IMG/VR virus record: IMGVR_UViG_3300020196_000026
Coordinates: 5,102-69,101 of that record
Length of the DNA stretch: 64,000 nt
Reading direction: 5' to 3' (one strand)
Source of the DNA: a virus
In this document: positions 880 to 19,100 of the stretch, in pieces
Numbering within the stretch: position 1 is the first letter of the stretch
Layout: each line of letters opens with the position of its first letter
The notes under the pieces: generated by a model
What the model was told of the DNA's origin: nothing
Database searches by the model: none
Seen by the model: the letters and a program-made list of their open reading frames with translations, nothing else
Program-made: the position numbers and the translations under genes

Positions 880-1584
880 ATGATTAAAGTAGCAAACAAT
901 CTTCAACGTTTAGTAAAGAGCGCTAACAATCCATCACAGGAAGCAGCAACACTAAGAACTGATCATCCTTTTAATCTTCATTACGCAGGAACTCCGCATG
1001 CTTACTATTCTTACGGAAATTCTCCAGCAACGAGTATGGTACCAGAAGCTTTTTTTGCGGAATTGGTGGCGGACGGCGGGTACGGAGTCGCGCCGACCGA
1101 TACGGGTAATATGAGCCCTGAGGATTATGCTGCGTTTCAAAATACCTTACTTAGTTGGCACCGACAACATAATAACCCTTCTACGCCTTATAGCCCTTCT
1201 ACACAACCCGCGCCTGCAAGAGGGCGTGGCGGAAGAGTAGTTCGCGAAACTCCTGCTATGCATGGGCTGAATAATCCACATACCAGAAATCAAGAAATGC
1301 TATTTAGAGCAATGTTCCCGATTGGAAACCTTATACCCGGCTTCTTCAGCGGCGGCGGCAAGGCCTTCGCCACCGCACGCGATGGAAGTTATACTCCTCA
1401 TTACAGCTATCAAGAATCCAAAGTCCCATGGCCATACACATACCAAGCTGTGACCAAAAAAGAACCGTTCATGCCGTCTTTCCCGTTTTATAAAGCAGAC
1501 GGACAAGGTTATGATCAAGTTTTATCCCCTAGATCTATATCAGAGCAATATTCTGATTATTTAAATAGAGGTATGTCAAGGTAA
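880..1584 (+). CDS. MIKVA-leader protein, putative internal head (cargo) protein
   Basis: N-terminus MIKVANNLQRLVKSA, followed by an unrelated P/Y/G-rich body. Confidence 0.65.
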   Translation: MIKVANNLQRLVKSANNPSQEAATLRTDHPFNLHYAGTPHAYYSYGNSPATSMVPEAFFAELVADGGYGVAPTDTGNMSPEDYAAFQNTLLSWHRQHNNPSTPYSPSTQPAPARGRGGRVVRETPAMHGLNNPHTRNQEMLFRAMFPIGNLIPGFFSGGGKAFATARDGSYTPHYSYQESKVPWPYTYQAVTKKEPFMPSFPFYKADGQGYDQVLSPRSISEQYSDYLNRGMSR

Positions 1585-1604
1585 TATTATGTTTTCATCT
1601 GAAA

Positions 1605-1889
1605 ATGATTAAAGTAGCAAACAATATTCAACGTATGCTTGAGAAAAAATCTGAGCAGCCTTTAAAAGAAGTTTTACGTGATTTTATTGATGATCGGGAT
1701 CTTCCAATTTATATTGGAACCCCTCTTGGAGCTCTTTTAGGAGGAGTATTGGGTTATGGTGCGTATCGCTTAGGACTTAAGAATAAAGCAATAGAGAAAG
1801 ACAGCCTTTTGATGGCTCTTGGTTTACCTTTGTTGGGAGCGGCATCTGGCGGACGGCTAGGTTATAGTATTGGTAAAGAGTTAAAGTAA
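1605..1889 (+). CDS. MIKVA-leader glycine-zipper membrane hairpin protein
   Basis: MIKVANNIQRMLEKKS leader; two GxxxG hydrophobic helices (GTPLGALLGGVLGYG, GLPLLGAASGGRLG). Confidence 0.7.
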   Translation: MIKVANNIQRMLEKKSEQPLKEVLRDFIDDRDLPIYIGTPLGALLGGVLGYGAYRLGLKNKAIEKDSLLMALGLPLLGAASGGRLGYSIGKELK

Positions 1890-1893
1890 TATT

Positions 1894-2334
1894 ATGTTTT
1901 CATCTGAACTTATAAGTCTCGTTAGCGGCGGCCTTGTAGGTTTTCTTTTTAGGTATATGGCACAAAAAAGTGCCGATCAGAAGGAGCTGTTTAATCAGCT
2001 TATTCAGGCCAACAAACAGACTACTGATAACCAGAATCAGGCTGTTAAAAGAGTTCCGATAGATACAGGTAGAATAGTAAGACAGATTATTGTTTTGACT
2101 ATATTGTTTGGAGCTTTTGCTGCTCCTTTCATTTTGCCTTTCTTTGGCGTGCCTACATTTGTAGAGGTTGACGTAAAGAATCCTGAAGCTATCTTTGGTT
2201 TAATTCCCGCCACCGTAAAGAAGGCATTTGTAGAAATTAATGGCTTTTTCTGGACTTCTGAAAATAGAGAAGTGCTATTAAGTATCGTAGGATTTTATTT
2301 TGGTACCGCTGCTGCAACCCCTAATAAATATTGA
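1894..2334 (+). CDS. Holin-like membrane protein (about 3 TM)
   Basis: Three hydrophobic segments and a C-terminal LLSIVGFYFG motif resembling 3TM phage holins. Confidence 0.5.
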   Translation: MFSSELISLVSGGLVGFLFRYMAQKSADQKELFNQLIQANKQTTDNQNQAVKRVPIDTGRIVRQIIVLTILFGAFAAPFILPFFGVPTFVEVDVKNPEAIFGLIPATVKKAFVEINGFFWTSENREVLLSIVGFYFGTAAATPNKY

Positions 2335-2657
2335 TAGATATCGCTATGGCAATTTTAATTTTTATAATTTTGATGGCTTTGTCTTTTCTGACCGGTTGCT
2401 CCAGCAATCCAGTAATCATTCCTGATCCTACCTCTGATAATGGCGTGATGCTGGAGCTTAAGCACCGTATTGCGCAGTCAGAGATTTCAGGAGTTTATAG
2501 TTCTAGCTACGGTTGGCTATTTTGGTACATACCTTTAGCTGTATTGCTTATTTTTTGGGGTTACCGTAATTTAATTAAAAAGCCCCTTGATTGCATTGAA
2601 GAAGAGCCCGATTCCGTTAAACTGCAAGACAAGGTTGACGGGGATATTAAAACTTAA
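2331..2657 (+). CDS. Lipoprotein with a second TM helix (possible spanin-like lysis accessory)
   Basis: Signal peptide ending FLTG|C; second hydrophobic helix WLFWYIPLAVLLIFW; directly follows the holin-like gene. Confidence 0.45.
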   Translation: MIDIAMAILIFIILMALSFLTGCSSNPVIIPDPTSDNGVMLELKHRIAQSEISGVYSSSYGWLFWYIPLAVLLIFWGYRNLIKKPLDCIEEEPDSVKLQDKVDGDIKT

Positions 2658-2680
2658 ATTAAAACTTAGGGGTATTAACA

Positions 2681-3250
2681 GTGATTAAAGTAGCAAATAA
2701 TATTAAATCCATGTTAGAAAAACAGGCTTTATTTACTGTAGGCAGTTTTAGCCCGTTTGAGAGTCAGCTCGCTAACTATGGCGTCTATGCTGGCGGCGGC
2801 GGACTTGCTGGTGCTAGTATTGGTGCTCTGGTAAATGCACTGCGTGGTGAGTCTAAGCTTAAGGGCGCACTCATCGGTGGCGGTGTTGGTGTCGGTGCTG
2901 GTGTTGGTCTAAAGGGATTGGCCGATGTATTAGCCGGAAATGCACAAGGTATACTTCGAGATTACGGAAGAAGTGGCTATCTAGTAGCTAAGGGCAAAAA
3001 AGAGGATGAAGCAGACTTAGCGGCCTATCGAGCTCGCAAGCAAGACACTTGGACTAATTACTTCAAAGATAAAGTTTTTGGTGAGCCTACAGTAGTAAAA
3101 GGCGATGAAAACCAAAAAGCCTACGAGAAAGTTATAGAGGAGCTTGCATCAATGAGTATTCTCGAAGCTATCAAAAATGATGAGCAGAATCGTCATTGGA
3201 GAACCGTCATTGATGCAGCACACGGTCTACACGATCTTATCAAAGGATAA
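2681..3250 (+). CDS. MIKVA-leader glycine-zipper protein (module shared with 10941..11390)
   Basis: MIKVANNIKSMLEKQA leader (GTG start); YAGGGGLAGASIGALVNALRGESKLKGALIGGG module. Confidence 0.75.
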   Translation: MIKVANNIKSMLEKQALFTVGSFSPFESQLANYGVYAGGGGLAGASIGALVNALRGESKLKGALIGGGVGVGAGVGLKGLADVLAGNAQGILRDYGRSGYLVAKGKKEDEADLAAYRARKQDTWTNYFKDKVFGEPTVVKGDENQKAYEKVIEELASMSILEAIKNDEQNRHWRTVIDAAHGLHDLIKG

Positions 3251-3271
3251 AACTGCGAAAGAACACCAACA

Positions 3272-3637
3272 GTGATTAAAGTATCAAGCAACCTTCAACG
3301 TATGATCTTCGTCAAGTCTGCTGAGGACTATTGGTACGGAGCTGAAACAACAAACTATATTGATTTAAATGGAAAACCAACAAATCAATATGGCATTTAT
3401 CACGGTTTACCTATTAGAGAGTCTGATGAAGTTGGGTGGCTTCAAAATCCCAAAAAATCAATTCCACGTAGTCAGCTTGAAAGAATTATCAAAGAATTAG
3501 CTAAAATTAAGGGAATCGACGTAACCGGAGAAAACAAAGATACCGGTTATCTAGAGTTTGGATGGAGCACAAATAAAAATAGGGGTGTTGCCGACGAAGA
3601 AATGTCTAAGATGATAAATTCAATTTTGTATAAATAG
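3272..3637 (+). CDS. MIKVS-leader protein, putative head cargo
   Basis: MIKVSSNLQRMIFVKSA leader followed by a globular-looking body. Confidence 0.7.
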   Translation: MIKVSSNLQRMIFVKSAEDYWYGAETTNYIDLNGKPTNQYGIYHGLPIRESDEVGWLQNPKKSIPRSQLERIIKELAKIKGIDVTGENKDTGYLEFGWSTNKNRGVADEEMSKMINSILYK

Positions 3638-3652
3638 AGACGGAGTTAATAA

Positions 3653-4168
3653 ATGATTAAAATAGCTCATAATCTACAAAATCTTATTATAAATAAATTA
3701 TCAGAAGATCGTAGTCCAGGATACGTTGGAGTCCCAAAATCCACGGGGTGGGATGGGTATGGAGTTTACGAGCGGGAAGGTCAACCCCGTAGATACTTGC
3801 GTTTAACGCCTCCTGCAGCAGCTCCTATGCCTGTTATGCCAGGGCCTACATCTCCTCGAGTTCCTATGCCTGTTATGCCAGGGCCTACATCTCCTCGAGT
3901 TCCTATGCCTGTTATGCCAGGGCCTACATCTCCTCCAGTTCCTATGCCTGTTATGCCAGGGCCTACGCCTTCTCCAATTCCTATGCCTACTACGCCAAAG
4001 CCTCGTCCAAACGCAATGGATTACGCTAACGTATTACTAAGGCACCTTAATAGGCGGCGAGTTCGTACGCCTGCTACGCCAGCTCCTACGCCTTCTCCAG
4101 CTCCTACGCCTATTGAGGCTGAGTTTAGCGAGAAGATGCAGCGCCTTGATGACCCGAAGAGCGCATGA
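3653..4168 (+). CDS. MIKIA-leader Pro-rich protein
   Basis: MIKIAHNLQNLIINKLS leader; PMPVMPGPTSPRV repeats. Confidence 0.7.
   Translation: MIKIAHNLQNLIINKLSEDRSPGYVGVPKSTGWDGYGVYEREGQPRRYLRLTPPAAAPMPVMPGPTSPRVPMPVMPGPTSPRVPMPVMPGPTSPPVPMPVMPGPTPSPIPMPTTPKPRPNAMDYANVLLRHLNRRRVRTPATPAPTPSPAPTPIEAEFSEKMQRLDDPKSA
3824..3988 (+). repeat. 39-bp tandem repeat, about 4.2 copies (PMPVMPGPTSPRV)
   Basis: Unit cctatgcctgttatgccagggcctacatctcctcgagtt starts at 3824, 3863, 3902, 3941 and 3980. Confidence 0.95.
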
Positions 4169-4201
4169 CGCGCTCAATATCTTCTAACAGAAAGTAAAGC
4201 C

Positions 4202-4411
4202 ATGTTTTCGCCAGAACTTATAAGTCTTGTTGGCGGGGGCCTTACAGGCTTCCTCTTTAAATATATGGCTCAGAAGAGTGCTGATCAAAAGGAGATGTTT
4301 AATCAGCTCATTCAGGCTAATAAGCATCCATACCTTTCGTTGCACGGGCGATCTGAGCGACCTCCCGTTGCCAGTGCTTCTCCAATTCCCCCTTATAATA
4401 GAGTTTATTAA
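4202..4411 (+). pseudogene. Truncated, diverged duplicate of the holin-like gene 1894..2334
   Basis: First 41 aa (MFSPELISLVGGGLTGFLFKYMAQKSADQKEMFNQLIQANK) match MFSSELISLVSGGLVGFLFRYMAQKSADQKELFNQLIQANK; then an unrelated tail. Confidence 0.8.
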
Positions 4412-5145
4412 TTCGTTTCTTTAAGTACTAGAATTATCCAAGGGGCAATACGTTCTATTTTTGTAGCGGAGTTTTCATATAAGACTCCTCGCATAAAGCC
4501 TATTGAAGAAACAATTCCGACTATTTCATTATTTTGATTTAAAACGGGACCGCCAGAATCTCCGTACCAGATAGTTCCTTTGTAGCAAAGCATTTTGATA
4601 TAAAAAGGGTCTTCTTTTAAAGTACCGTAGTAGCAAAAAGTGTTAAGGTCACTTTTCTTTCTGTATTTGCCTCCGTGACCCACGACTGTAAGAGACTCTC
4701 CTCGAACTAAATCTTTAGTGCAGATCTGCATAGGCTCCTCTAAACACGGTTCATATAGTTTAGCTATAGCAGCATCAAGAATATAAATAGAGCCTATTTT
4801 AAATAGAGGAGGAAGTGCAATGCTATCTATGCAGTACCGCATTCCATTAGTTTCAAACCAATGGAATTCTGAATCATCTACTACATGTCCTGCCGTAAGT
4901 ATATGGTGTGAGTCTAAAAGAGTTGCGCTTCCAATTAACCTACCATCGTAATCAGTAATGCGACCCACAGCAGGCATTTCACTGTCTGTAATTAATGTAA
5001 ACCCTTTTAAATACGAAGGTTTATATTCTTGAACTTTTACAGGGTTTATGGTTGTTTCGTAGGTGGCGCATCCAGTCCAAAGCAAAACAAAAGCAGTCAG
5101 TACGTATATGCTAAAACTAACTAAATTTTTATGCAAAGTTTTCAT
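4408..5145 (-). CDS. Trypsin-like (S1) serine protease, predicted lipoprotein
   Basis: HILTAGHV (His), ILDAAI (Asp), WYGDSGGP (Ser); lipobox-like LLWTG|C. The only convincing minus-strand gene. Confidence 0.9.
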   Translation of the reverse strand: MKTLHKNLVSFSIYVLTAFVLLWTGCATYETTINPVKVQEYKPSYLKGFTLITDSEMPAVGRITDYDGRLIGSATLLDSHHILTAGHVVDDSEFHWFETNGMRYCIDSIALPPLFKIGSIYILDAAIAKLYEPCLEEPMQICTKDLVRGESLTVVGHGGKYRKKSDLNTFCYYGTLKEDPFYIKMLCYKGTIWYGDSGGPVLNQNNEIVGIVSSIGFMRGVLYENSATKIERIAPWIILVLKETN

Positions 5146-5368
5146 GATATAAACATCCGATATCTTTGACCTACATGCAAATTTAAGTTTAAAATATTTG
5201 AAAAGAAGCTATACAATGATACTGTCTTAAGAAAAATAAAGAATAAAAATAACGCCTAGGTTTTACTCAGAGTGCTATACCTTTGGCTCAAAATTTACAC
5301 TTAACAGTAGGAATGTCGTATATGCTTCTAGGGGTAGTTTTTACCGAGCTTCGTATTTTTATTTTAGC

Positions 5369-5374
5369 TATAAT
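5369..5374 (+). promoter_or_regulatory. Putative -10 element (TATAAT) upstream of 5399
   Basis: agcTATAAT in the AT-rich divergent intergenic region. Confidence 0.4.
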
Positions 5375-5398
5375 TTTTATGCTATTAGAGCTTAAACT

Positions 5399-5851
5399 AT
5401 GAATCTATTTCGCTCTTATTTAATCAAATACGCATATGGTTGTGATGCTGTAGGGTTTTTGAATTCTTCTGAGCTGTTACAGAAAAAATTGGAAGCTATT
5501 ATGTCTGATATGGAAAAGCCTGAGCTAGAACATGCAGCCCCGGTTGACGACAAAGTTGTCGAGATTACAGTAGTGAAGACATCTACTAACGATAAATTAA
5601 TAAAAACCCTTCTTAGCTATGGTCTAAAGTTTGCTCCAAAGATGATGCCTCTGTACAACGAGCTTGATCCTAAGGATTTAGCAGACATAAAGATAGACGT
5701 AGGGTACTCCTTACCTCAAAATAAAGATACTAAAGTTGATGATGTAGAGCAGGATTCAACTCAACAGTTAAATGGAGATAAGACTCTGTATCCGACTACA
5801 TCGGATCTTTTTAATTTTAACAATATTTCTAAAGACACCGCACTTGCATGA
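5399..5851 (+). CDS. Hypothetical protein with short KxA-ended leader
   Basis: Starts MNLFRSYLIKYA. Confidence 0.6.
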   Translation: MNLFRSYLIKYAYGCDAVGFLNSSELLQKKLEAIMSDMEKPELEHAAPVDDKVVEITVVKTSTNDKLIKTLLSYGLKFAPKMMPLYNELDPKDLADIKIDVGYSLPQNKDTKVDDVEQDSTQQLNGDKTLYPTTSDLFNFNNISKDTALA

Positions 5852-7653
5852 TTCCTTATAGCGCCTACATGAAGCGAGCGGCAGCGCCTACAAGACCAAG
5901 CCCTAGCTATACGTCTGCTACTGAGACGGGCCTTACTTCTACAGGCACTCCAAAACCTTTTCAAGCGCCTAGATACTACGATCGCCCAGGTGTTAATCCT
6001 GAACTTGCAGCACAAGGCAAGCAATTAGAAGCAGACTACGCTCGTCAGTTTCCATATGGAGACTACACCTATAGCACCAAAGGTTGGGGTTATCGAGGCG
6101 GTCAGCGTGCTCAAATGGATCAGGAACAAATAGACCTAAGGAATAGGTTTAGACTCTACGAGGCTCAAGCTAGGGGAATCAGCCCAAGTAATCCACAAGC
6201 TGTTGCGCCAAGCCCCAGTGCTGCAAGTGCATTTGTTGGGGACTTGGCTAGATCTCCTATTATGCCCACTGCTCCCTTTATGTACGCCTACGATGTTGGC
6301 ACTAAAGGTTTACAGCAAGCTACAGCCGATAAGATGCAATCCGATGCTGTCTACGGAAGCATGTTGGCAGATGCTGGAAAGCGCGTAGCCAATCGCTGGG
6401 GCGGCAACTTTGAGCTTCAGTACAACGATCCCTATTTAAACTATGCTAGTTACGCTTTGGAGGCTGCTCCAAGTCTACTTCTGGCAGCAGGTACCGGAGG
6501 CGGAAGTCTTGCAGCTCAAGGTGCCGCTCGTACTGGTGCCACAGTAGCCCCAAGTGCCTTTAGAACTCTAGGTCGTTTCGCCGCAACAGGTTTTCAACCC
6601 GCACTTCAAGGTTCAACTAATCCTGTAGTTAGATTTGCGGGACGCTCAATTCCTGCTTTCACTAACTACGCTATGTCCGGGCTTAATCCAGTACCGTTAA
6701 TCATGGGTACAATGCGAACAGCTGGGGTTGATAGAGTTCTTTCTCAATTAGGAGCACACCTTGCAACCCATGGTGCAGCTAACAACTATGCAAATGCCTA
6801 CAGGGATACAGCTGCGTTTAATGCAGCAAATCCAAATGTTGCCGGCACTCCAGAATCTCTTCAGCGTTTTGGTGAATCTCTATTGGCCGGAGGCATCCAC
6901 TTAGATCCAACTGCTTTAAACCCATGGGGTATTGGTGCAAGCAGTTTTTTACCTTCTATTGATGAGCAACGAGAATCAGCTATAGACAGAGCTACTGAGT
7001 TAAAAATATCTCAAATGTCACCAGAGAAGCAAGCCTTGGTGTTAAGTGATCCAGCACAGTATGCCGTAGTGAGAAAACAAATTATTGATGAGTTTTATCC
7101 GAATTCTTTTGTTCGCCATGCAACTGACGTAGTAACTCTTAATCCACTTAGAGCATTAGGTGCGACTAGTTATAGCGAAAATCTGGCTACAAATAAAGAT
7201 ACTGCAACTAATGTTGCTACAAGCGCAATGGGGTTTAAAAACACGGCTTTGCTAGACCCTAAGTTCTTTAAGGATTTAAATGATTTATCTTTTGACTTCG
7301 CTCAAAATCCAGAGTCTATTAACTCCAGTGGGCTTGGTAAGCACCTAATGCAATCTCCTCTAGCAGCTCAAGTAGGGGGAAACCCTCGAAACGTTATTGC
7401 AGCTGCACAAATGATGGCTGGTCTTAACAGAACGCTAGCTAACATGTATTACGCCTATCAGCAAACTGGCCAAGTACCTCCAGGCTATACAGAACTTGCG
7501 CAACAGGCTGATAATATTGCCAAGGCTCAGCAGCTGCCAGTGGAAGTTCAGGAATCAGGTAATACCCCCTTAGTAGATGCCTTGCTGCAACTACGACCAG
7601 TAATGAATCAGATATATCCGGGGGCGCAGCAAACTCAAGGAGCGACGCAATGA
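5848..7653 (+). CDS. Large A/G/Q/N-rich putative internal virion/ejection protein
   Basis: 601 aa; leader MIPYSAYMKRA; amphipathic Ala/Gly-rich helices. Confidence 0.6.
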   Translation: MIPYSAYMKRAAAPTRPSPSYTSATETGLTSTGTPKPFQAPRYYDRPGVNPELAAQGKQLEADYARQFPYGDYTYSTKGWGYRGGQRAQMDQEQIDLRNRFRLYEAQARGISPSNPQAVAPSPSAASAFVGDLARSPIMPTAPFMYAYDVGTKGLQQATADKMQSDAVYGSMLADAGKRVANRWGGNFELQYNDPYLNYASYALEAAPSLLLAAGTGGGSLAAQGAARTGATVAPSAFRTLGRFAATGFQPALQGSTNPVVRFAGRSIPAFTNYAMSGLNPVPLIMGTMRTAGVDRVLSQLGAHLATHGAANNYANAYRDTAAFNAANPNVAGTPESLQRFGESLLAGGIHLDPTALNPWGIGASSFLPSIDEQRESAIDRATELKISQMSPEKQALVLSDPAQYAVVRKQIIDEFYPNSFVRHATDVVTLNPLRALGATSYSENLATNKDTATNVATSAMGFKNTALLDPKFFKDLNDLSFDFAQNPESINSSGLGKHLMQSPLAAQVGGNPRNVIAAAQMMAGLNRTLANMYYAYQQTGQVPPGYTELAQQADNIAKAQQLPVEVQESGNTPLVDALLQLRPVMNQIYPGAQQTQGATQ

Positions 7654-8861: not shown

Positions 8862-8892
8862 GTAAGTTTCTTTTCTACGGTAGAATTACATT

Positions 8893-9261
8893 ATGACCAA
8901 TAAAGAATTACAAGCATTTCGTCAAGGCTTTTGTGAAAAGGCTGCAGAGTTAGGCATTCTGCCTTCTGAGCTTTTATCTTACAGTGGTTATAAGCAGTCG
9001 TTTTTAAACAATATTACAGGGGATGCTGCCAACGTTGCTAGCACTGCGACTCAAGCGGCGCTCTTACTGGCGATGGGTGGGCTTTCGCTGGGCGCAGCGG
9101 GCGGCGCACTAGGTAACTACTTGTACAACAAGGCAAAGTTTGAGCTGGATCCTGATGACTCTATTTTGCCAACTTACAATGCGTTAGACGAGGCAAAAAA
9201 TTTGCATATTCTTGCAAAATACCGTAATGCTAAAAAACTTGTAGAATCCGGGCTTTCATAA
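8893..9261 (+). CDS. Small glycine-zipper protein with KxA/S-ended leader
   Basis: AFRQGFCEKAA...YKQS, then MGGLSLGAAGGALG. Confidence 0.65.
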   Translation: MTNKELQAFRQGFCEKAAELGILPSELLSYSGYKQSFLNNITGDAANVASTATQAALLLAMGGLSLGAAGGALGNYLYNKAKFELDPDDSILPTYNALDEAKNLHILAKYRNAKKLVESGLS

Positions 9262-10079: not shown

Positions 10080-10871
10080 ATGGTTCCTTACAAAAATTAT
10101 ATTAAAAGTTTCAATGCGAAAACTATCAGAGATGTGGAGGCGGCAAAAGCGGTCAAGTATGGCGGCGTGCAGCTTTCTCCGAATGCGACCGCAGCTGGAT
10201 TGCCGTCCTTAGGAGATTTGAGTCAAAATCCTAATTTCTCCGAACTGAAACTTCCGCCCCGCCCAACCCTAGAGCAATTGCTAGGCCCTGGACGTGTGTG
10301 GGATGAAGAAAGGGGCGTAGTGATAAACCGTGCTCGGCAACTGCAAGAACTCCGTGACGCGATGCGCGCGAGTATGATTCCAACTTTTGACGAACAAGTA
10401 AGGGCGAGACAAGAACTTGAACAGCACCTTATTAACACTGAAAAAGACACCCAAACAGCTGCTATTAACGCTGTATCCGCCCTCGCCCCCGTCCCTCCTA
10501 TAGGCAGAGGCCCCCTTTTGCCAAATGCGGCTTCTGCTAGGCAGTACGGGCGAGAAAATTATGCAACTACCCCTGTTCCAACGCAATTAATCAATGTGAA
10601 TCCGCCTAAGCCTAAGTTTCCTGATAAAAGCCCGCTTCAATACCTTCTTAATCCAACTGATAATAATTATGCCAATTACGGTATTGCAGGCGGTATTGGA
10701 GCTCTTGCCCTTGGTGCTTTAGGTAGCCTTTTATCCGAACGCAAAAATAGAATGAGAAATACGCTACTGTATGCTTTGCTTGGTGGGGGTCTGGGTCTTG
10801 GAGCAAAGTATTTAGCGGATCGTTATGGAGTTGGCGGTGTAAATTCTGCTGACTCTAGTGTAAAAGCCTAA
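10080..10871 (+). CDS. PY-leader protein with C-terminal glycine-zipper hairpin
   Basis: Likely start ATG 10080 (MVPYKNYIK...), directly after the upstream stop; ANYGIAGGIGALALG...LYALLGGGLGLG. Confidence 0.65.
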   Translation: MVPYKNYIKSFNAKTIRDVEAAKAVKYGGVQLSPNATAAGLPSLGDLSQNPNFSELKLPPRPTLEQLLGPGRVWDEERGVVINRARQLQELRDAMRASMIPTFDEQVRARQELEQHLINTEKDTQTAAINAVSALAPVPPIGRGPLLPNAASARQYGRENYATTPVPTQLINVNPPKPKFPDKSPLQYLLNPTDNNYANYGIAGGIGALALGALGSLLSERKNRMRNTLLYALLGGGLGLGAKYLADRYGVGGVNSADSSVKA

Positions 10872-10876
10872 TAGCC

Positions 10877-10918
10877 GTGCCTGCTAAAACTAAAAAGCAA
10901 CAAAGATTTTTTCAGTAA
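10877..10918 (+). pseudogene. 13-codon remnant of the start of gene 11412
   Basis: GTG CCT GCT AAA ACT AAA AAG CAA CAA AGA TTT TTT CAG TAA = MPAKTKKQQRFFQ*, vs MPAQSKKQQRFFG at 11412. Confidence 0.8.
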
Positions 10919-10940
10919 ATTATATAAAGGGATAATAATA

Positions 10941-11390
10941 ATGCCTTACTCTCACTATCGTCCAATTCTTAAACAATCCAATATCACTGTTGGGGATGCT
11001 CTTGCAGCGTTGAATCCAACTAGCCACCAGGTCTGGCCCCAGATGAGTCTAACTACTAATCCTCTAGCAGACTACGGCATTTATGCAGGCGGTGGCGGAC
11101 TTGCTGGCGCTAGTATTGGTGCTCTGGTAAATGCACTACGTGGTGAGTCTAAGCTTAAGGGTGCGCTGATTGGTGGCGGCATTGGCGCCGGCCTTGGCGC
11201 TGGCGCAAAAGCTCTTGGCGACTATATGCTTTCAGACGAAGTTGCTGAACTTGCAAAACTTGATAGGGAAAGCGAGACTGAATTCCGCTGGCCATGGAAG
11301 ACCTTCCCGAGTGAGAAGGCTAAAGCAATCAAAGAAGAGTCGTTACTTAAAAACATTATGAGGAGTCTAGAGAACGCTTCAAGATCCTAG
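10941..11390 (+). CDS. PYSHY-leader glycine-zipper protein (module shared with 2681..3250)
   Basis: MPYSHYRPILKQS leader; LADYGIYAGGGGLAGASIGALVNALRGESKLKGALIGGG. Confidence 0.75.
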   Translation: MPYSHYRPILKQSNITVGDALAALNPTSHQVWPQMSLTTNPLADYGIYAGGGGLAGASIGALVNALRGESKLKGALIGGGIGAGLGAGAKALGDYMLSDEVAELAKLDRESETEFRWPWKTFPSEKAKAIKEESLLKNIMRSLENASRS

Positions 11391-11411
11391 CCTTCTTAAA
11401 GGAAGGAAAAT

Positions 11412-12413
11412 ATGCCTGCTCAGAGCAAGAAGCAACAACGCTTTTTTGGTTTAGTTAAGGCTATTCAAGAAGGCAAAGCTACTGGCTCTGGTAAGGCTGA
11501 GCAAGCTGCGGCAAGTATGTCTGAAGAGGATGTGCGTGACTTTGCCAAGACGGAGCATGAAGGTCTACCGGAAAGCAAAAAGGAATCCATGGATCCCAAC
11601 GTAAAACAACTACTTAACTATGCTGCCATCAGTGCAGGAGTAGGTCTTGGCGGCGTGGGGCTCTATGGCCTTGGTAAGTATCTGCATGATGAATCTATGT
11701 TTGGTTTACCTGGCCAAGAGAGTCGTTTAAAGAGTATGGAGAAGCGTATTGCTATTCCAAAGAGCCACAAGATAGAAAAGTATCTACCTAATGATATAGC
11801 TAGCCCTACTGATATGCTGCCAGAGAAAGCAGACGAAACCACTTCGGATCTTTCTCAGGAGACTATAGACGACATGGAGAATCCTAAGGAACTCAGTGAG
11901 AAGGCGTCTGGATGGGGTGAGTGGATCACAGAGCCGCTGGTGTATGGTATGGCTACCCCAACTGCAATGTTAGCTCCGGGTATTCTTACCTTCATGCTTG
12001 GCACTCGACTTATCGATAAAGCCCGTAAGGAAAAGATGGAATCTAAGATTGAAAAGGCTAAGAAAGAATTTGAAAAAGTTCTTTCAAAACAATCCTCTGA
12101 GCTTCAACTGCAGGTCGATGGTTTAGTAAAACAGGCTATTGATCCAATTCCCCCTGACAAGATTCAGAGAACGCCAGACCCCCATGGACCAGGATTGAAC
12201 ATTCCGGGTGCCGCTTTTGCTTTAGGCCTTACCCCCGGCATAGGGATGCTGCTTGGCTGGTGGTATATGCAAAACAAAATGAAGAACGATGAGGACAGAG
12301 CTAAGCTCAAGAGCATGCAGAGTTTGCTTAAGCGCGATATTGCTTCCGGTGCTTTTGCATCGGGTGTTGATCTTGAAGAAACCACCGAAGGTAAACCAAA
12401 ATTTAAACTTTAA
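11412..12413 (+). CDS. DUF3008-like N-terminal domain fused to three hydrophobic segments
   Basis: MPAQSKKQQRFFG...SMSEEDVRDFAKTEHEGLPE resembles DUF3008; segments are preceded by KES, KAS and KQA. Confidence 0.6.
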   Translation: MPAQSKKQQRFFGLVKAIQEGKATGSGKAEQAAASMSEEDVRDFAKTEHEGLPESKKESMDPNVKQLLNYAAISAGVGLGGVGLYGLGKYLHDESMFGLPGQESRLKSMEKRIAIPKSHKIEKYLPNDIASPTDMLPEKADETTSDLSQETIDDMENPKELSEKASGWGEWITEPLVYGMATPTAMLAPGILTFMLGTRLIDKARKEKMESKIEKAKKEFEKVLSKQSSELQLQVDGLVKQAIDPIPPDKIQRTPDPHGPGLNIPGAAFALGLTPGIGMLLGWWYMQNKMKNDEDRAKLKSMQSLLKRDIASGAFASGVDLEETTEGKPKFKL

Positions 12414-12430
12414 ATTAAAATAAAAGTTCC

Positions 12431-15400
12431 ATGCCTATGCCTGGTGCAGATGACTTAAATCAACTCGTAGCTCCCTCTGCTCCAGTACTGAGAGGCTTTA
12501 ATGATTACCGCATTACTCGTAAGAACATTTTTGACGGTGTAAAGAATGCGGTATTGTCAAAGTTTCCTTTGCAGAACACTCGATACACTGTCGAGCTCTC
12601 GGGCCTAGACTACAGCCGTTCAGAACCCTACAGTATAAAGGAACAGCAAGAAGCTTTGATGCAGAATCAGAGTCTTTATATTCCATTGCGGGGTCGCCTG
12701 GTAATGAAGGATAACGTTACCGGTGAGATTCTGGATAGGACTGATAAATCTATTACTCTCGCCAGAGTACCTTATCTTACAGATCGTGGTACTTTTATTA
12801 AATCAGGTAGTGAATACACTGTAGCCAATCAGTCTCGGCTGCTTGCAGGACCATACGTTCGTAAGCGTAAGTCTGGTGAATTTGAGGCGCACTTTAACAC
12901 TATGCCTGGCAAGGGTCGTGGTTTTCGTATGGCATTCATGCCAGATACCGGAAAGTTTGTTGCTGAGATTGGGCAGTCCGTTGCTCCTGCTTACCCAATG
13001 TTTAAGGCCTTAGGTATTGATGACTCTATTCTTGAGCGCACCTGGGGCAAAGAACTCCTGGAGTCAAACAAGATCGGCTCTACCTATGACGCAGCTCGTA
13101 TCTATGAACGACTAACCAATAGTCCTTCAAAGGGATTAGATGATGCCACAATCTATCAAGGCATCAAGGATGCTCTTTATAAGACTGAATTAGACCCCGA
13201 GGTTACTCGTCGTACTCTGAGCTACGCCGAAGCTATCAAAAAGCAGGCAGATGTACCTCTGCGCGGCACTCTTAAGATTGAAGACGAAGGTTATATTACC
13301 GTACCTGCAGGATTCGTGGACAGTGTTTTCTATGCACTCCGAGATTCTGACAAGGCTCCTGCTATCTCTCCCGTTGCCAATAAGAATAAGCTTATTGTCA
13401 TTACAGCAGAGGAGCTTAAACAGTTAAAAAAAGTCTTCCGTAAGAATTTTGAGACTACTTGCGGTTCTGGCCGCAGATTTACCTACAATATTCGCAACGT
13501 ACTGCCCCCCAGCAACGGCGAATATTGCATTGATATCGAGTGCCCAGAGCTAGAGCAACTGCGTAGAAGCCTCTTGCTCGATGCCAAGCCTCGTGGTGGG
13601 TTTAGACTAACTGTAGGTACAAAAGTTGCTGCTGATTTAAATGAATTGCTGACTGAGAAGGAAGCCGCTCCCCTGCCAACTATGCAAGACTTCGAGTATG
13701 AGCAAATGCAGCTTAACGACGAAGACCTAAGCAGAATTACCGGTAATACCTTACTACGCGTTTCTCAGAAGATTCTCAATGCTCAGCGTGGCCTTGAGGA
13801 TCAGGATGACCGTGACTCTTTGGCTTATCAGAAGTTTCTAGGCCCAGAGGACTTCTTCTCTGAGAGAATTCAGAAGGATGCTGGTGCAGCTGTCAGAACA
13901 GCTTTGTTTAAAGCTACCAATAAAGGTAATTTAAACTCTTTCCGCAATGGTGTATTCACACCAGTGCTTAACGGCGTACTTATAGGATCTGGTCTTGGCG
14001 CACCCATTGAGGAAGTGAACCCGATGGAGATTCTGGACCAGAATATGCGTGTAATTCGTACAGGTGAGGGAGGCATCGGTTCGGCTGCTCACGGCATCCC
14101 TGTTGACAGTCGTTCAGTGCAGCCTTCTCATCTCGGGTTTCTAGATCCAGTTCGTACTCCTGAGTCCGACAAAGTAGGTATTGATCTACGACTTACCGTA
14201 GGCTCCTACAAGGGCTCAGATGGCCAGATATACTCCAAGATGCGCAGAACTAAGACCGGTAAGCTAGAGCCTGTGGCGGCTCGTACGCTTATCGATTCTA
14301 TTGTTGCATTTCCTGGAGAACTTGCACGCTCGGCGAAGACAGGAGATCCAATCAGGGCGATGGTGCGTGGCCGCATTTCCTATGTCGATCCCACAGAGGT
14401 CGAATACGAAGTGCCTGCCCATAGCAACATGTTTAATATTAATTCCAACCTTGTACCTGGTATCTCAGGTGTCAAGGGTGGACGCCTGCTTATGGGCTCT
14501 AAATACTTCACTCAGGCGTTACCTGTCCAGGGTGCCGAAGCGCCCCTGGTACAGGGATTAGACCCTAATGACGCAGATGGTAGATCGTTTGAGGAACAGC
14601 TTGTGCCACACCTTGGTGCTGTTGCTGCTGAAACCGAACTTGGCAATGGTCTCGTTACTGCGATTACGCCAGAATACGTTGAGGTAAAGCACGGCAAAGA
14701 AAAACGTCGTTATGAGCTGTACAACAACTTTCCATTCAATCGCAAGACTTATATCCATAATACGCCAACGGTTAAGTTGGGAGATCAGATCAAACCGGGC
14801 CAGCTTCTGGCTAAGTCTAATTTTTCTGACGACCAAGGCAGACTTGCTATGGGTCGTAATCTAAAGGTAGCGTATACGGTTTGGGGTGACACTGAACTGG
14901 GCGGCTCTAACTTTGAAGACGGCGTAGTCATGTCTGAAACGGCCGCTAAAAAGATGTCCTCGGAGCATATGTACACTGTTGGCTATGACAGCAAAGATGA
15001 CTATGAAGCCAACTTTAACAAATTTATTTCTCTATTTCCAGGACAGTACAACAAAGAGCAGTTAGCCAACCTTGACTCTGCTACAGGTGTCGTTAGGCCA
15101 GGTACTGTTTTAAATCCTGGTGATCCTATTATTCTTGGTGTAGGTGAAAGGAGGTCTGATGTATTTGGCCTGATGAAGAAGGCCAGACCGAGCTATACGA
15201 ATAGAGCTCAGACCTGGGATCATAGCCAGCCAGGTGTTGTGACCGATGTTACCAAGAATCGCAGCGGATATCAGGTTGCAATTAAGTCCTATAAGCCAAT
15301 GTCCATAGGCGATAAGCTAGTCGGTCGTTATGGCGATAAGGGTGTTATTTCCACTATTATTCCAGACGAGGATATGCCAAAGGATAAGGAAGGCAATTCA

Positions 15401-17347
15401 TATGAAGTTATTTATAATCCCCTCGCTCTTGTCACTCGTGTTAATCCTGTGCAGGCCGTGGAAGCTGCAATGGGAAAGATTGCAGCCAAGACCGGCGTAC
15501 CTATCAAGCTTCCAGCATTCTTGGATGAAAGTTTTATAGATTTTGCACAACGAGAGCTAAAGAAAAACAAGCTTACCGATACAGAGACCCTTTATGATCC
15601 AAGACTCAATCGCAATATAGATAACGTATTTACCGGAAATCGCTATTTCCTAAACTTACATCATCAGGCAGAGAAGAAGTTGAGCGCCCGTGATGTCGGT
15701 GGCTACAGCACTGAAGAGACTCCAGTCAAGGGTGGAACAGAGGGCGCTAAGCGTATTTCTATCTCTGATATGAATGCTCTCCTTGCCCACGGCGCTATCG
15801 AAGTGATTAAGGATGCCAGACTTATCCGTGGTCAGAAGAACGACGAATACTGGCGTGCAATCAAGATGGGTACTCCGGTGCCTTCCGTTAATGTCCCCTT
15901 CGTATGGGATAAGTTTGTAGCCCAGCTCAAGGGTGCCGGAGTAAATGTAGAGCGTCAAGGCGGCGCCATAAACATTTATGGTATGACCGGTGAGGATGTA
16001 AAGAATTTATCTGGCGGCGAGGTTAAGGACTTTCGGGATATCGACTTTAAGACCGGTAAAGCCTATGACGGCGGCTTCTTCGACGAAAAGATCTTTGGCG
16101 TCAACCAGTCATTTTTCGGTCATTTCCCGCTTGCTGCCAAGATAGTTAACCCCGTCATGGAAGATGTGGTGCGATCTCTTACAGGCCTTACCAAGAAGGA
16201 TTTTGAATCCTTAGTCTCAGGCGATACGATTAAGGGCATTCGTGGTATGGGGGGACTGGAGCAGAAGCTTATTGGAATGAATGTTCCTGCGGAGATCGAG
16301 GCTACTCGTAGAGAAATCACGGGGTCTAAAGGTCAGAAACGCAGTAATGCTATTTCTAAGTTGTCATACCTGGAAGGCATGGAGAAACGTAAGATTAAGC
16401 CAAAGGATTTCTTCTGGGAAGACATGCCAGTACTGCCGCCTCGCTTTAGACCGATTACCGATACCGGCAATATGCAGATGATCTCAGATATGAACTATCT
16501 ATACAAAGAGCTGTTTAGCATGAACAGCAATCTCAAAGATCTGCAGAGTGAGCTCGGCAATGAAGCTACAGGCAAGGAGCAGCTTGCACTTTATAAGATG
16601 ATTAAGGCTACAGTTGGACTTGCAGATCCTGCTAGTGCAAAGCTTAAGCAAAAAAATGTCAATGGCATTATTAGACACATTCTAGGTAATAACCCGAAAT
16701 TCTCAATGTTCCAACGCAAAGTCTTGTCTTCTACAGTAGAAGGCGTAGGTAATGCTGTTATTACTCCAGACCCCTCGCTAGATATGGACCACGTCGGTGT
16801 ACCTGAGGATATGGCATTCTCTGTATTCCGCCCATACGTAGTTCGATCCCTCGTTGCCTCAGGGGCAAATCCTCTGGAAGCGATGAAGCAGGTTGAGAGT
16901 AGAACACCAACTGCCAAGCGAGCTCTACTCGCTGAAATGGAGAAGCGCCCGGTTATGATTACTCGAGCGCCCGTACTGCATAAGTACAACTTCATGGCAG
17001 CCAAGCCAAGATTGACCACGGGTAGCACTCTTAAACTATCGCCATCTGTTGTTGTTGGATTTAATGCAGACTTTGATGGTGATCAGATGCGGTTACACGT
17101 TCCTTCTTCTCAGAAGGCTATAGCGGAAGCCTATGATCGTATGTTGCCTAGTCGTAATCTATTGTCTGCCGCAACATTCCAGGCTCAGCCGTTTATTAAA
17201 AACGAGTTTTTATACGGTCTTTATTTAGCCAGCAAGAACTCACCAGATAAGAAAAACGTCAAGGTATTCCGCTCCAAGAATGACGTAATTCAGGCGTTTA
17301 ATCGAGGCGAGCTTAGCGCTACTGACACCGTAAAGATAGTAAGATGA
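12431..17347 (+). CDS. Phage multisubunit DNA-directed RNA polymerase: beta fused to the N-terminal half of beta'
   Basis: beta motifs GTFIKSGSEY, DPVRTPES, RLLMGSKYFTQA, NFEDG, GDKLVGRYGDKG, LHHQAEKKLSAR; beta' motifs PVLPPRFRP, RAPVLH and catalytic FNADFDGDQM (NADFDGD at 17063-17083). Confidence 0.95.
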   Translation: MPMPGADDLNQLVAPSAPVLRGFNDYRITRKNIFDGVKNAVLSKFPLQNTRYTVELSGLDYSRSEPYSIKEQQEALMQNQSLYIPLRGRLVMKDNVTGEILDRTDKSITLARVPYLTDRGTFIKSGSEYTVANQSRLLAGPYVRKRKSGEFEAHFNTMPGKGRGFRMAFMPDTGKFVAEIGQSVAPAYPMFKALGIDDSILERTWGKELLESNKIGSTYDAARIYERLTNSPSKGLDDATIYQGIKDALYKTELDPEVTRRTLSYAEAIKKQADVPLRGTLKIEDEGYITVPAGFVDSVFYALRDSDKAPAISPVANKNKLIVITAEELKQLKKVFRKNFETTCGSGRRFTYNIRNVLPPSNGEYCIDIECPELEQLRRSLLLDAKPRGGFRLTVGTKVAADLNELLTEKEAAPLPTMQDFEYEQMQLNDEDLSRITGNTLLRVSQKILNAQRGLEDQDDRDSLAYQKFLGPEDFFSERIQKDAGAAVRTALFKATNKGNLNSFRNGVFTPVLNGVLIGSGLGAPIEEVNPMEILDQNMRVIRTGEGGIGSAAHGIPVDSRSVQPSHLGFLDPVRTPESDKVGIDLRLTVGSYKGSDGQIYSKMRRTKTGKLEPVAARTLIDSIVAFPGELARSAKTGDPIRAMVRGRISYVDPTEVEYEVPAHSNMFNINSNLVPGISGVKGGRLLMGSKYFTQALPVQGAEAPLVQGLDPNDADGRSFEEQLVPHLGAVAAETELGNGLVTAITPEYVEVKHGKEKRRYELYNNFPFNRKTYIHNTPTVKLGDQIKPGQLLAKSNFSDDQGRLAMGRNLKVAYTVWGDTELGGSNFEDGVVMSETAAKKMSSEHMYTVGYDSKDDYEANFNKFISLFPGQYNKEQLANLDSATGVVRPGTVLNPGDPIILGVGERRSDVFGLMKKARPSYTNRAQTWDHSQPGVVTDVTKNRSGYQVAIKSYKPMSIGDKLVGRYGDKGVISTIIPDEDMPKDKEGNSYEVIYNPLALVTRVNPVQAVEAAMGKIAAKTGVPIKLPAFLDESFIDFAQRELKKNKLTDTETLYDPRLNRNIDNVFTGNRYFLNLHHQAEKKLSARDVGGYSTEETPVKGGTEGAKRISISDMNALLAHGAIEVIKDARLIRGQKNDEYWRAIKMGTPVPSVNVPFVWDKFVAQLKGAGVNVERQGGAINIYGMTGEDVKNLSGGEVKDFRDIDFKTGKAYDGGFFDEKIFGVNQSFFGHFPLAAKIVNPVMEDVVRSLTGLTKKDFESLVSGDTIKGIRGMGGLEQKLIGMNVPAEIEATRREITGSKGQKRSNAISKLSYLEGMEKRKIKPKDFFWEDMPVLPPRFRPITDTGNMQMISDMNYLYKELFSMNSNLKDLQSELGNEATGKEQLALYKMIKATVGLADPASAKLKQKNVNGIIRHILGNNPKFSMFQRKVLSSTVEGVGNAVITPDPSLDMDHVGVPEDMAFSVFRPYVVRSLVASGANPLEAMKQVESRTPTAKRALLAEMEKRPVMITRAPVLHKYNFMAAKPRLTTGSTLKLSPSVVVGFNADFDGDQMRLHVPSSQKAIAEAYDRMLPSRNLLSAATFQAQPFIKNEFLYGLYLASKNSPDKKNVKVFRSKNDVIQAFNRGELSATDTVKIVR

Positions 17348-17964
17348 CTCAGCCATATTCCCAACTCGTAAAGATTCACGGTAAACAGTCAATGGCTAAA
17401 CAAATGAACAAGCAATCCAAATATCATATGTTACGTCAATACCTCATGCAGAAGATTGCATACGATTCGAAGCAAGAGGAGGAGGCAATCCAGCGCCTTA
17501 AAGCGCAGGAGGCAATCATACAGAGACTAGGCCTTACAGGCCAAGTTAATTTTGTAGGTGCCTTCGGTAATAAACCTGGAATCGCCGTTCGTCCAGACGG
17601 TAAAACAGCAATAGATCCCCTAGAACAAGTTGCCTTAAATAACTTTTTGGCTAGCACTGCCCCGCTCCGTACGACCGGACAACCAGGTTATCAAGGCGGC
17701 CAGGGGGTTACTGGAACGCCGCCAGCTATGCCGCCACCAGCAAAACCTCCAGTTTCTGCAACTCCTACGGCATCAGCAAAACCTCCAGTTTCTGCAACTC
17801 CTACGGCATCAGCAAAACCTGCAATTCCAGCGTCTTCTACGCCACCACCAAAACCTCCAGTTTCTGCAACTCCTACGGCATCAGCAAAACCTCCTAAACC
17901 CGTAGTTACTAAACCTAAAGGTATTCCTAGTGGGACGGGCGGTGCAGGTATAGATGATCCATAA
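17344..17964 (+). CDS. Pro/Ala/Thr-rich protein with composite leader (alternative start 17392)
   Basis: MTQPYSQ...KQSMAKQMNKQS...YLMQKIA; AKPPVSATPTAS repeats. Confidence 0.65.
   Translation: MTQPYSQLVKIHGKQSMAKQMNKQSKYHMLRQYLMQKIAYDSKQEEEAIQRLKAQEAIIQRLGLTGQVNFVGAFGNKPGIAVRPDGKTAIDPLEQVALNNFLASTAPLRTTGQPGYQGGQGVTGTPPAMPPPAKPPVSATPTASAKPPVSATPTASAKPAIPASSTPPPKPPVSATPTASAKPPKPVVTKPKGIPSGTGGAGIDDP
17364..17411 (+). repeat. 48-nt direct repeat of 19112-19159
   Basis: actcgtaaagattca(c/t)ggtaaacagtcaatggctaaacaaa(t/a)gaacaa, 46/48 identical. Confidence 0.95.
17740..17893 (+). repeat. 36-bp imperfect tandem repeat (AKPPVSATPTAS)
   Basis: gcaaaacctccagtttctgcaactcctacggcatca at 17740 and 17776, recurring near 17850. 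Confidence 0.9.
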
Positions 17965-18005
17965 ATAAGTATTACTTAGTCCTAAAATCAAACTAAGAGT
18001 ATAAA

Positions 18006-19100
18006 ATGATTAAAGTATCAAACAGCCTTCAACGTATGCTTGAGAAGCGTGCTAATACTGGATTTCTAGGGGCTCCAACTGGGTCGCCTATTTCGGATCC
18101 GGATGATCTTAAGTTGAGGTTAGGGGTACGCCCAGAACACGATTGGGCGACAAGTAAAGCCCCTGATCCAGAATCCCGTGGTGAATACTACGGTACGAGG
18201 CCTACTCTACCGCCTGATAATAATACACCTGCCTCTAGGATGTATCCGAATTACTATACATTGCATCCTACCACCCCTAGAGCAGATTTTGAGCGGAACT
18301 ACGGCGATGAATTGACTGAGCGGCTAAGGCAAAACGCTAGGGCATACCAGGAAGCACACCCCCAGGCAATGGCTAGGTATGGGGCAACTAGCTATATGCC
18401 AAATTACTCTCTAGTAAACTTTGATGCGCCCCATTGGGTTAGGCAGTTAAGGGAAGTAGACGGGGAAGCATCAATGGAGGCTTATACTTATAACAGGGCC
18501 TTTCCACACCACCAGGCGATAGTCCATATGGCTCTGAATCCTTCTGATCCTGACTATGGTACCTTTGATAATCCGACAGATTATTACAACTCAATCTTAC
18601 AGCACGAGTCTACCCATAGATTGCAGCCTGCTGAGTATCTCGACAGCAGAGGGCGTCCAGTAAGGAAGCAAAGAGTACTGCCTGGAGAAGATCCGGCACA
18701 AGTTTATAATTACGGGCAGACGACTCCTCCGGCTCCAGTCGTCCCGCGGACTCTAGTCGGCCTCCTAAGCTCAGCTTTTGACCTAAGCCCAAGGGAGCCC
18801 TACAGGCATAGCCGCTTCCCTCAGGAGCTAGCACCCATGGTGTCTCAGGCTAAGTTACAGTACTATAACGATCTGAGAAGGACTTCATCGCTCAGCAATG
18901 TTGAGGAACTTATGAACTTTAACGACCCCAATAACTATGAACGGTTCTTAAGTTGGATGAAGTCCCAAAATGGCACGGCTGGCCAAGAAAACTATGCAAG
19001 AGACATCAATTGGATTCTCAAGCTTCCACCTGAAGAACGAGATCTTTACTTTAAAGGAATTGTTTCTCGTCAACCCATCTCTACTGAGTATAGGGTATGA
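18006..19100 (+). CDS. MIKVS-leader protein with zincin-like HExxH motif
   Basis: MIKVSNSLQRMLEKRA leader; ILQHESTHRLQ, with a downstream PQELAP glutamate. Confidence 0.65.
   Translation: MIKVSNSLQRMLEKRANTGFLGAPTGSPISDPDDLKLRLGVRPEHDWATSKAPDPESRGEYYGTRPTLPPDNNTPASRMYPNYYTLHPTTPRADFERNYGDELTERLRQNARAYQEAHPQAMARYGATSYMPNYSLVNFDAPHWVRQLREVDGEASMEAYTYNRAFPHHQAIVHMALNPSDPDYGTFDNPTDYYNSILQHESTHRLQPAEYLDSRGRPVRKQRVLPGEDPAQVYNYGQTTPPAPVVPRTLVGLLSSAFDLSPREPYRHSRFPQELAPMVSQAKLQYYNDLRRTSSLSNVEELMNFNDPNNYERFLSWMKSQNGTAGQENYARDINWILKLPPEERDLYFKGIVSRQPISTEYRV

Follow-up and report, generated by a model that had tools for sequence, protein, structure and literature searches.

A 64,000-nt stretch of viral DNA (bases 5102–69101 of one 69,101-base contig, IMG/VR record IMGVR_UViG_3300020196_000026; referred to here as the window) was found to encode proteins that have in common a short N-terminal leader, the MIK leader, which is defined as MIKVANNLQRML…K-x-A/S at the start of a protein, is 15–17 residues long, and is joined to bodies that are unrelated to each other. 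The 69-kb contig carries seven MIK-leader genes in total. On balance, we favor the reading that the MIK leader is a targeting propeptide similar to the capsid targeting sequence (CTS) of phage T4, which would take variable, injected cargo into the head and would be removed at K-x-A/S by a protease similar to T4 gp21.

Six open reading frames (ORFs) that begin with the leader, at 880, 1605, 2681, 3272, 3653, and 18006 (those at 2681 and 3272 with a GTG codon), were present in the ORF list of the window and were recovered by a six-frame motif scan (Table 1), in agreement with an earlier note made from the letters of this DNA; the scan gave one extra match, at 20700, which is interrupted by stop codons and was taken as chance. 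A seventh copy (MIKVANNIQNMLTKQAA), overlooked in the earlier note, begins outside the window, 174 nt upstream of it (contig position 4927). That the bodies are unrelated was borne out by a comparison of the seven bodies after removal of the first 18 residues (21 pairs; best BLASTP E = 0.45), and similarity does stop at K-x-A/S, as had been noticed before, in each of the seven copies and, with relatives included, in all 34 non-redundant leaders. The leaders are also alike at the DNA level, as described in the earlier note, over the first 27 nt; a degenerate 27-nt pattern for the first nine codons had six matches in the window and none in each of 100 dinucleotide-preserving shuffles.

Neither Pfam nor PHROGs provided a match for any of the seven leader proteins of the contig. 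A Pfam scan of these seven proteins and of 35 cargos from relatives revealed no enzyme family, and no cargo has a housekeeping enzyme domain; only DUF5872 (two cargos) scored above its Pfam cut-off. While the translations do show glycine-rich bodies and bodies with proline repeats, as previously described, the glycine zippers described with them were represented only by Pfam Gly-zipper matches below the cut-off, on cargos of relatives. The HExxH domain attributed to the 18006 protein comes down to the motif HESTH, with no Pfam or PHROG match; ESM Atlas look-alikes of this protein were viral hypothetical clusters only, and the nearest one with a Pfam family (LPD23, at 0.88) was below the lead threshold. 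An AlphaFold2 model of the 2681 protein (seven sequences) had a predicted local distance difference test score (pLDDT) of 40, which is too poor to use and counts neither for nor against the favored reading.

Relatives of the contig were found via their RNA polymerase gene (78–93% identity in the RNA polymerase protein) and include one high-GC member, G004, which is 183,468 bp long, has direct terminal repeats, and is rated 100% complete. A hidden Markov model (HMM) of the leader, a check suggested in the earlier note, gave 21 matches of at least 7.3 bits in six-frame translations of six related records; all 21 were located at an ATG, GTG, or TTG codon, i.e., the leader is strictly N-terminal. 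Scanning viral and metagenome contigs for the leader pattern (27 and 114 stretches, respectively) uncovered further cargos. Of 47 distinct N-termini from the metagenome contigs, 30 satisfied a filter for a true start and K-x-A/S, and 14 of these 30 were new. An ortholog of the 2681 protein is encoded in another relative, G001, at another genomic position. A homolog search with residues 1–40 of one leader protein yielded three candidates and two matches (E of 0.5–0.85), one of which is a new cargo. The other match (P0001, a public protein of 311 aa from another contig) is a fusion of two cargos that are encoded by adjacent genes in G001; its second body begins …MNKQSQ…, without a MIK tag. A scan for the leader pattern in one genome per prokaryote species gave 35 matches and no real leader (the matches were short ORFs, were internal, or had no K-x-A/S), and therefore provided neither a prophage nor a host clue.

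Many neighboring genes of the same block carry a second recurrent N-terminal tag, M-x(0-2)-PYSH[HY]…K-Q/S-A/S (the PY tag), a leader class that the earlier note had missed. PY tags in the window are found on the genes at 5848, 10080, 10941, 17344, 19877, and, less clearly, 49361, and one more is located at contig position 4062; a regular expression for the PY tag had 34 matches in six records, approximately 20 of which were real by eye, as compared to 2 of 2148 for a control on internal methionines. The two tags replace each other on orthologous bodies. The 19877 protein, which has a PY tag (MTPYTHHSPEYRQV-), aligns with its G004 ortholog, which has a MIK leader (MIKIAANLERLYGE-), from residue 15, at RSKQA (73% identity, E = 3e-26), and the 17344 protein, which also has a PY tag, matches the product of a G001 gene with a MIK leader (E = 7e-47); a related body at contig position 4511 has no tag and starts directly with MNKQA. 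These different tags on orthologous bodies indicate that MIK and PY tags are portable and interchangeable, as judged from the alignments. The cargo varies between related phages while the tag is kept: homologs in five related records (E < 1e-5) were found for one of the seven MIK cargos and for five of the six PY cargos, and, as compared to G001, the MIK genes lie in two inserted islands. The second island has at its edge a 69-aa truncated duplicate of the gene at 1894–2334 (MFS(S/P)ELISLV…), which has higher identity to the G001 version (75%) than to the full copy in the window (66%), suggesting that the island was acquired by recombination with another phage; the duplicate is probably a recombination scar.

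The motif at the leader-body junction recurs near the N-termini of head proteins. K-x-[AS] was present at positions 6–22 in all 34 non-redundant MIK leaders (at positions 13–15 in 26 of them), as compared to 26 of 334 internal control windows, and PY tags likewise end in the junction motif; K[QRKS][AS] had 20 matches in 800 residues at positions 6–25 and 37 in 10,461 residues further in. Of the plus-strand ORFs of two structural blocks, 29 of 40 have K-x-[AS] within residues 1–25, as compared to 5 of 42 other ORFs. For the pentapeptide EKRAN, 0.013 occurrences would be expected in the predicted proteome (21,936 residues), and three were observed, namely in the leader of the 18006 protein, in a candidate prohead protease, and in the major capsid protein, while an acidic scaffold-like protein encoded between the latter two has QKRAEN at residues 19–24. 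These N-proximal motifs of the head proteins are retained in the G004 orthologs. In an alignment of one cargo family, K-x-A is separated from the conserved body by a linker that varies and reaches ~30 residues.

The candidate prohead protease (59669–61024) belongs to a family with 3,200 representatives at E ≤ 0.001 in a library of 1.84 billion proteins. Among 61 members of this family, H98 and S149 are invariant, as is K35 within EKRAN (residues 34–38), and A37 is at least 90% conserved; PHROG 18299, annotated as "head maturation protease", matched 41 of the 61 members, while searches of Pfam and of the PDB (by sequence and by profile) gave nothing useful for the family. The AlphaFold2 model of the protease (pLDDT of 85) matched T4 gp21 (5jbl) with Z = 11.0 and a root-mean-square deviation of 3.2 Å, with 146 of 164 residues aligned and a Foldseek probability of 0.97–0.98; the runners-up were herpesvirus proteases with Z of 5–6 (next match 5.8). 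The model thus points to a prohead protease candidate of the gp21 family (assemblin fold) that is encoded beside head genes. When the full protease was modeled in complex with N-terminal 40-residue segments of leader proteins, both runs scored 0.00 and give no evidence either way. The scaffold role of the neighboring protein was assigned from position and composition only. The capsid assignment is based on PHROG 2522, which matched the full-length G004 ortholog (E = 3e-4), and on homology to gp226 of phage Arash (see below).

A second protease gene is present in the window. This gene (4408–5145, minus strand) encodes a trypsin-like serine protease with a lipoprotein-type signal (…LLWTGC) and is alone on that strand inside the island; it is present in the relatives G005 (96% identity) and G001 (69%) and absent from the complete G004. 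Because it has an export signal and is missing from G004, which retains both tags, its product was rejected as the tag-removing enzyme.

Leader genes flank a gene encoding a 1638-aa RNA polymerase fusion, and the PY and MIK genes form one co-oriented block with this polymerase. Pfam identified Rpb2 and Rpb1 domains in the fusion (12431–17347) and in a separate C-terminal part of beta′ (51076–52935). This split is unusual, with the C-terminal part of beta′ located 34 kb from the fusion and adjoining head genes; Salmonella phage Arash has the same architecture, and the complete G004 has one beta gene. Arash (180.8 kb), a cultured distant relative, encodes a homolog of the fusion (32% identity over 1282 aa). 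A homolog search that covered 140 of the 181 kb of Arash also recovered the C-terminal part of beta′, a portal-like protein, the protease, and the capsid protein. In purified Arash particles, Gp206, the homolog of the fusion, is reported with the most spectra (3516) and Gp216, the homolog of the C-terminal part of beta′, with 1210 (PMC10585845).

Conservation of the leader is at the level of the peptide. Among 35 distinct leader genes the residues are constant and the codons vary at most positions (ATT/ATC/ATA, AAA/AAG, GCA/GCC/GCG/GCT, AAT/AAC), and G004 spells the same peptide ATC AAG ATC GCA GCC AAC CTC. The DNA upstream of leader genes is unrelated, except for 24 nt common to 880 and 1605 and for orthologous sites in some relatives. 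Synonymous codon change together with differing upstream DNA indicates that selection acts on the peptide. Residues 1–14 have a mean helical hydrophobic moment of 0.53, as compared to 0.27 for shuffles, and a mean hydrophobicity of ~0.06; charged and polar residues are found throughout the leader, which lacks the hydrophobic core (~10–20 residues after a short charged N-region) of Sec, Tat, or lipoprotein signals. The composition of the leader thus fits an amphipathic helix and not a secretion signal. The ~24 nt directly upstream of genes 880 and 1605 (856–879 and 1581–1604) are near-identical (GTAATATTATGTTTTCA[A/T]CTGAAA); the intergenic spacer evidently traveled with the two cassettes when they were duplicated or exchanged.

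Under the favored reading, the leader would fold as a short amphipathic helix and dock the newly made protein onto the assembling prohead core. The gp21-like protease would then remove the tag at or beside K-x-A/S, and the same enzyme would process itself along with the capsid and scaffold-like proteins. Once released, the cargo (chiefly small proteins of glycine-rich or hydrophobic character and proline-repeat proteins, plus one protein with the HExxH motif) would remain in the head and exit at infection with the DNA and a packaged RNA polymerase. The PY tag (M-x-PYSH[HY]…K-Q-A/S) may do the same job on more conserved internal proteins, with the MIK tag marking a variable accessory set. The exclusively N-terminal position, selection on the peptide, tag swapping, the junction motif of the head proteins, the gp21-like fold, and the polymerase context are all consistent with the address-and-cleave tag proposed in the earlier note, whose packaging and cleavage steps go further than these observations. 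A bolder version, which we consider unlikely as a whole, would be a two-address system, in which the PY tag labels a conserved core of internal or ejection proteins and the MIK tag labels injected accessories with fast turnover, the specificity of the gp21-fold protease has shifted from Glu to Lys-x-Ala/Ser, the 45-nt leader DNA doubles as a recombination handle that captures new genes, and the phage also injects its own RNA polymerase.

Several observations weigh against a cleaved targeting propeptide. Packaging, binding to the prohead, cleavage, the cleavage site, and injection are all steps that we infer. In the comparison of ORFs of the two structural blocks with other ORFs, the virion block class was drawn by ourselves from position and strand and includes seven leader genes that are not independent. 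At least 3 of the 17 metagenome N-termini rejected by the filter look like genuine leaders but have KKT, RQA, or no such motif; MIKVA has a K-x-A of its own at residues 3–5; and the tag-less relatives start with MNKQA, an unexpected place for a motif that serves in cleavage alone. The leaders contain no conserved Glu, nor does the sequence that follows them, and many have no Glu in their first 25 residues, whereas the gp21-like proteases of T4, phiKZ, 201phi2-1, and SPN3US are all described as cleaving after Glu (PMC9026906); cleavage at K-x-A/S would therefore require a change in specificity; alternatively, the motif could serve in binding or as a helix cap. With 116 proteins detected in the Arash preparation, ribonucleotide reductases among them, contamination is possible, and the authors of that study mention potential carry-over (PMC10585845). 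Finally, no MIK or PY leader was present among 43 Arash N-termini examined.

If K-x-A/S is a binding surface or a helix cap, the leader may represent a signal for virion incorporation or ejection that is kept on the mature protein, with its helix bound to a fixed site (e.g., the portal, an internal core, the tail channel, or the packaged RNA polymerase). Such an uncleaved signal would account equally well for portability, location at the N-terminus, and gene neighborhood, and it is in line both with the leaders having no conserved Glu and with the 30-residue N-terminal packaging signal of P1 DarB (PMC9024508); however, the motif, even as exact EKRAN, recurs close to the N-terminus in both the capsid protein and the protease as well as at the leader-body junction, and a variable linker follows it. 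As the proteins that bear the motif are so different, a common processing site is simpler than a common binding site, and we judge an uncleaved signal to be improbable. A tag unrelated to the virion seems to us quite improbable; here a family of small phage proteins active inside the infected cell (e.g., in envelope remodeling, superinfection exclusion, or lysis timing) would share the leader as an amphipathic helix that seeks membranes or binds a partner, and the polymerase neighbor would be coincidental. While the amphipathic character of the leader, the glycine-rich or hydrophobic segments of many cargos, and the presence of a lipoprotein gene and the trypsin-like lipoprotein gene inside the islands could be explained in this way, some cargos (the proline-repeat protein and the 364-aa HESTH protein) are unlike membrane proteins, the junction motif is common to the capsid protein, the scaffold-like protein, and the prohead protease, the PY and MIK genes are co-oriented with a polymerase whose Arash homologs abound in particle preparations, and the trypsin-like protease is absent from the complete G004, which has both tags.

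The similarity of the first 27 nt among the copies in the window, along with the 24 nt that 880 and 1605 share upstream, could also suggest a nucleic-acid feature, i.e., a translation-initiation cassette or a recombination handle that is copied with each gene and encodes a functionless peptide. Synonymous spelling across 35 genes, including those of the high-GC G004, nearly excludes a purely nucleic-acid element; upstream DNA is otherwise unrelated, and an unrelated second peptide tag replaces the first on orthologous bodies. Given the codon data, this explanation is close to refuted and retains only a very slight chance of being correct.

The closest known system, by analogy, is the T4 CTS, a 10–19-residue N-terminal propeptide that takes unrelated, fast-evolving internal proteins (IPI, IPII, IPIII, and Alt) into the scaffolding core, is removed by gp21, and is also able to carry foreign proteins, according to the descriptions in PMC9026906, PMC3012670, and PMC5694885; T4 internal proteins are reported to vary and to have only the CTS in common (PMC3012670, PMC9026906). 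The MIK leader resembles the CTS in that a short N-terminal peptide of similar length (seven genes on the contig; 21 of 21 HMM matches at start codons) precedes unrelated mature parts that vary between related phages, in that its junction motif recurs on other proteins of the head, and in that the associated prohead protease candidate has a gp21 fold. It differs in that the leaders have no conserved Glu at P1, the rule given in PMC9026906, and end in a Lys-x-Ala/Ser junction, whereas T4, phiKZ, and SPN3US are described as cleaving after Glu. The earlier note had proposed that the tag evolved independently; while the leader sequence is unlike that described in the T4 reviews and has no conserved Glu, the protease has the gp21 fold, and the targeting principle could therefore be inherited, so that independent origin is not established. 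The present system, which is known from sequence alone, also differs from T4 in its two interchangeable leader classes and its apparently packaged multisubunit RNA polymerase. Encapsulin cargo-loading peptides are likewise short, portable peptides that bring diverse cargo into an HK97-fold shell, although most are located at the C-terminus, and they are not known to be removed by a protease or to serve an injection step.

The giant phages phiKZ, 201phi2-1, and SPN3US are described as packaging many internal head proteins and a virion RNA polymerase, with a gp21-related protease removing N-terminal propeptides, and paralogs such as SPN3US gp53 and gp54 can have identical N-termini (PMC5694885, PMC9026906); unlike the leaders described here, their propeptides are mostly >100 residues long and are cut after Glu, and these accounts describe no single short portable leader on unrelated bodies. 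For P1 DarB, a 30-residue N-terminal segment is sufficient to send a reporter into the capsid, although the signal is reported for DarB alone, with no link to proteolytic removal in the available text of PMC9024508. Work on T4, SPN3US, and P1 was all that a literature search for such leaders or for this lineage returned, with no paper on MIK or PY tags.

The contig is a fragment, a fact that the earlier note had overlooked: the capsid gene at 63690 runs off its end, related records of ~45–70 kb are rated 26–40% complete, and the full genome is probably ~180 kb long. Therefore, more leader genes may lie in the missing part. The contig encodes both beta and beta′ of a multisubunit RNA polymerase, as is characteristic of the multisubunit-RNA-polymerase-encoding Caudovirales (mReC) of PMC7481178, and has capsid, portal-like, and protease genes; the lineage fits among the mReC as described there, by gene content rather than by a tree. 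The features discussed here are listed in Table 1.

Table 1. Coordinates of leader genes, head genes, RNA polymerase genes, and associated features, given as window positions unless a contig position is specified.
Feature	Position	Strand	Description
Leader gene 7, body	ORF 3..827, 5′-open in window	+	333 aa; MIKVANNIQNMLTKQA leader; start at contig position 4927
Leader gene 1	880..1584	+	234 aa; leader MIKVANNLQRLVKSA at 880-924; no Pfam or PHROG match
Leader gene 2	1605..1889	+	94 aa; glycine-rich hydrophobic body; leader MIKVANNIQRMLEKKS at 1605-1652
Leader gene 3	2681..3250	+	189 aa; GTG start; glycine-rich body; leader MIKVANNIKSMLEKQA at 2681-2728
Leader gene 4	3272..3637	+	121 aa; GTG start; leader MIKVSSNLQRMIFVKSA at 3272-3322
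Leader gene 5	3653..4168	+	171 aa; Pro-rich repeats; leader MIKIAHNLQNLIINKLS at 3653-3703
Truncated duplicate of gene 1894-2334	4202..4411	+	69 aa; edge of second leader-gene island
PY-leader gene	5848..7653	+	601 aa; MIPYSAYMKRAA…; conserved in G001 and G002
PY-leader gene	10080..10871	+	263 aa counted from internal start; MVPYKNYIKSF…
PY-leader gene	10941..11390	+	149 aa; MPYSHYRPILKQS…; glycine-rich body similar to that of 2681
RNA polymerase fusion of beta and N-terminal part of beta′	12431..17347	+	1638 aa; inside leader-gene block; homolog Arash gp206
PY-leader gene	17344..17964	+	206 aa; MTQPYSQLVKIHGKQS…; MIK leader on G001 ortholog instead
Leader gene 6	18006..19100	+	364 aa; motif HESTH; leader MIKVSNSLQRMLEKRA at 18006-18053, EKRAN inside
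EKRAN site	18044-18058		Leader of 18006, position 13
PY-leader gene	19877..20563	+	228 aa; MTPYTHHSPEYRQVSARSKQA…; MIK leaders on G004 and G002 orthologs instead
RNA polymerase beta′, C-terminal part	51076..52935	+	619 aa; homolog Arash gp216
Prohead protease candidate	59669..61024	+	451 aa; N-terminal domain of T4 gp21-like fold (model)
EKRAN site	59768-59782		Protease, position 34
Acidic scaffold-like protein	61052..62617	+	521 aa; QKRAEN at 19-24
Major capsid protein	63690..63998	+	Cut by contig end; MEKRAN at residues 9-14; full-length G004 ortholog 325 aa
EKRAN site	63717-63731		Capsid protein, position 10

Three further ORFs have features that recall the tags or the head proteins. The ORF at 50246–51091 ends in …ALPAPYSHYASV… (51040–51091), which overlaps the start of the gene for the C-terminal part of beta′, and thus presents a PYSHY motif at its C-terminus. 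The 218-aa product of 49361–50017 consists mostly of PPMDPAMMGGMPPGA-type repeats, and a similar Met/Pro-rich stretch is found near the C-terminus of the scaffold-like protein. The N-terminus encoded by 11412–11580 (MPAQSKKQQRFFGLVKAIQEGKA) represents a further short N-terminal module common to phage proteins; it matched DUF3008 below the Pfam cut-off (19.7 vs. 24 bits, E = 1e-3) as well as several PHROGs of unknown function (E down to 2.5e-15). Elsewhere in the window, a pyrimidine-dimer DNA glycosylase (PF03013, E = 2.8e-10) is encoded at 25215–25901, in the non-structural middle region, and two giant ORFs at 31178–37636 (2152 aa) and 37638–49364 (3908 aa) contain RCC1-like repeats (PF13540 and PF25390, E down to 1e-61) and probably encode fibre or host-recognition proteins.

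If the favored reading is correct, searching for the leader would make it possible to list the proteins injected by a widespread, uncultured phage lineage with an RNA polymerase of its own. The cargo proteins, all of which are without a known family, would be candidates for anti-defence and envelope-breaching factors, by analogy to the internal proteins of T4. A head protease of gp21 fold would be able to use a site other than Glu, and the CTS principle would reach beyond T4-like phages. The loading of capsids with foreign proteins would also gain a second short tag, which would be an extension, since such loading is already established for T4 and P1.

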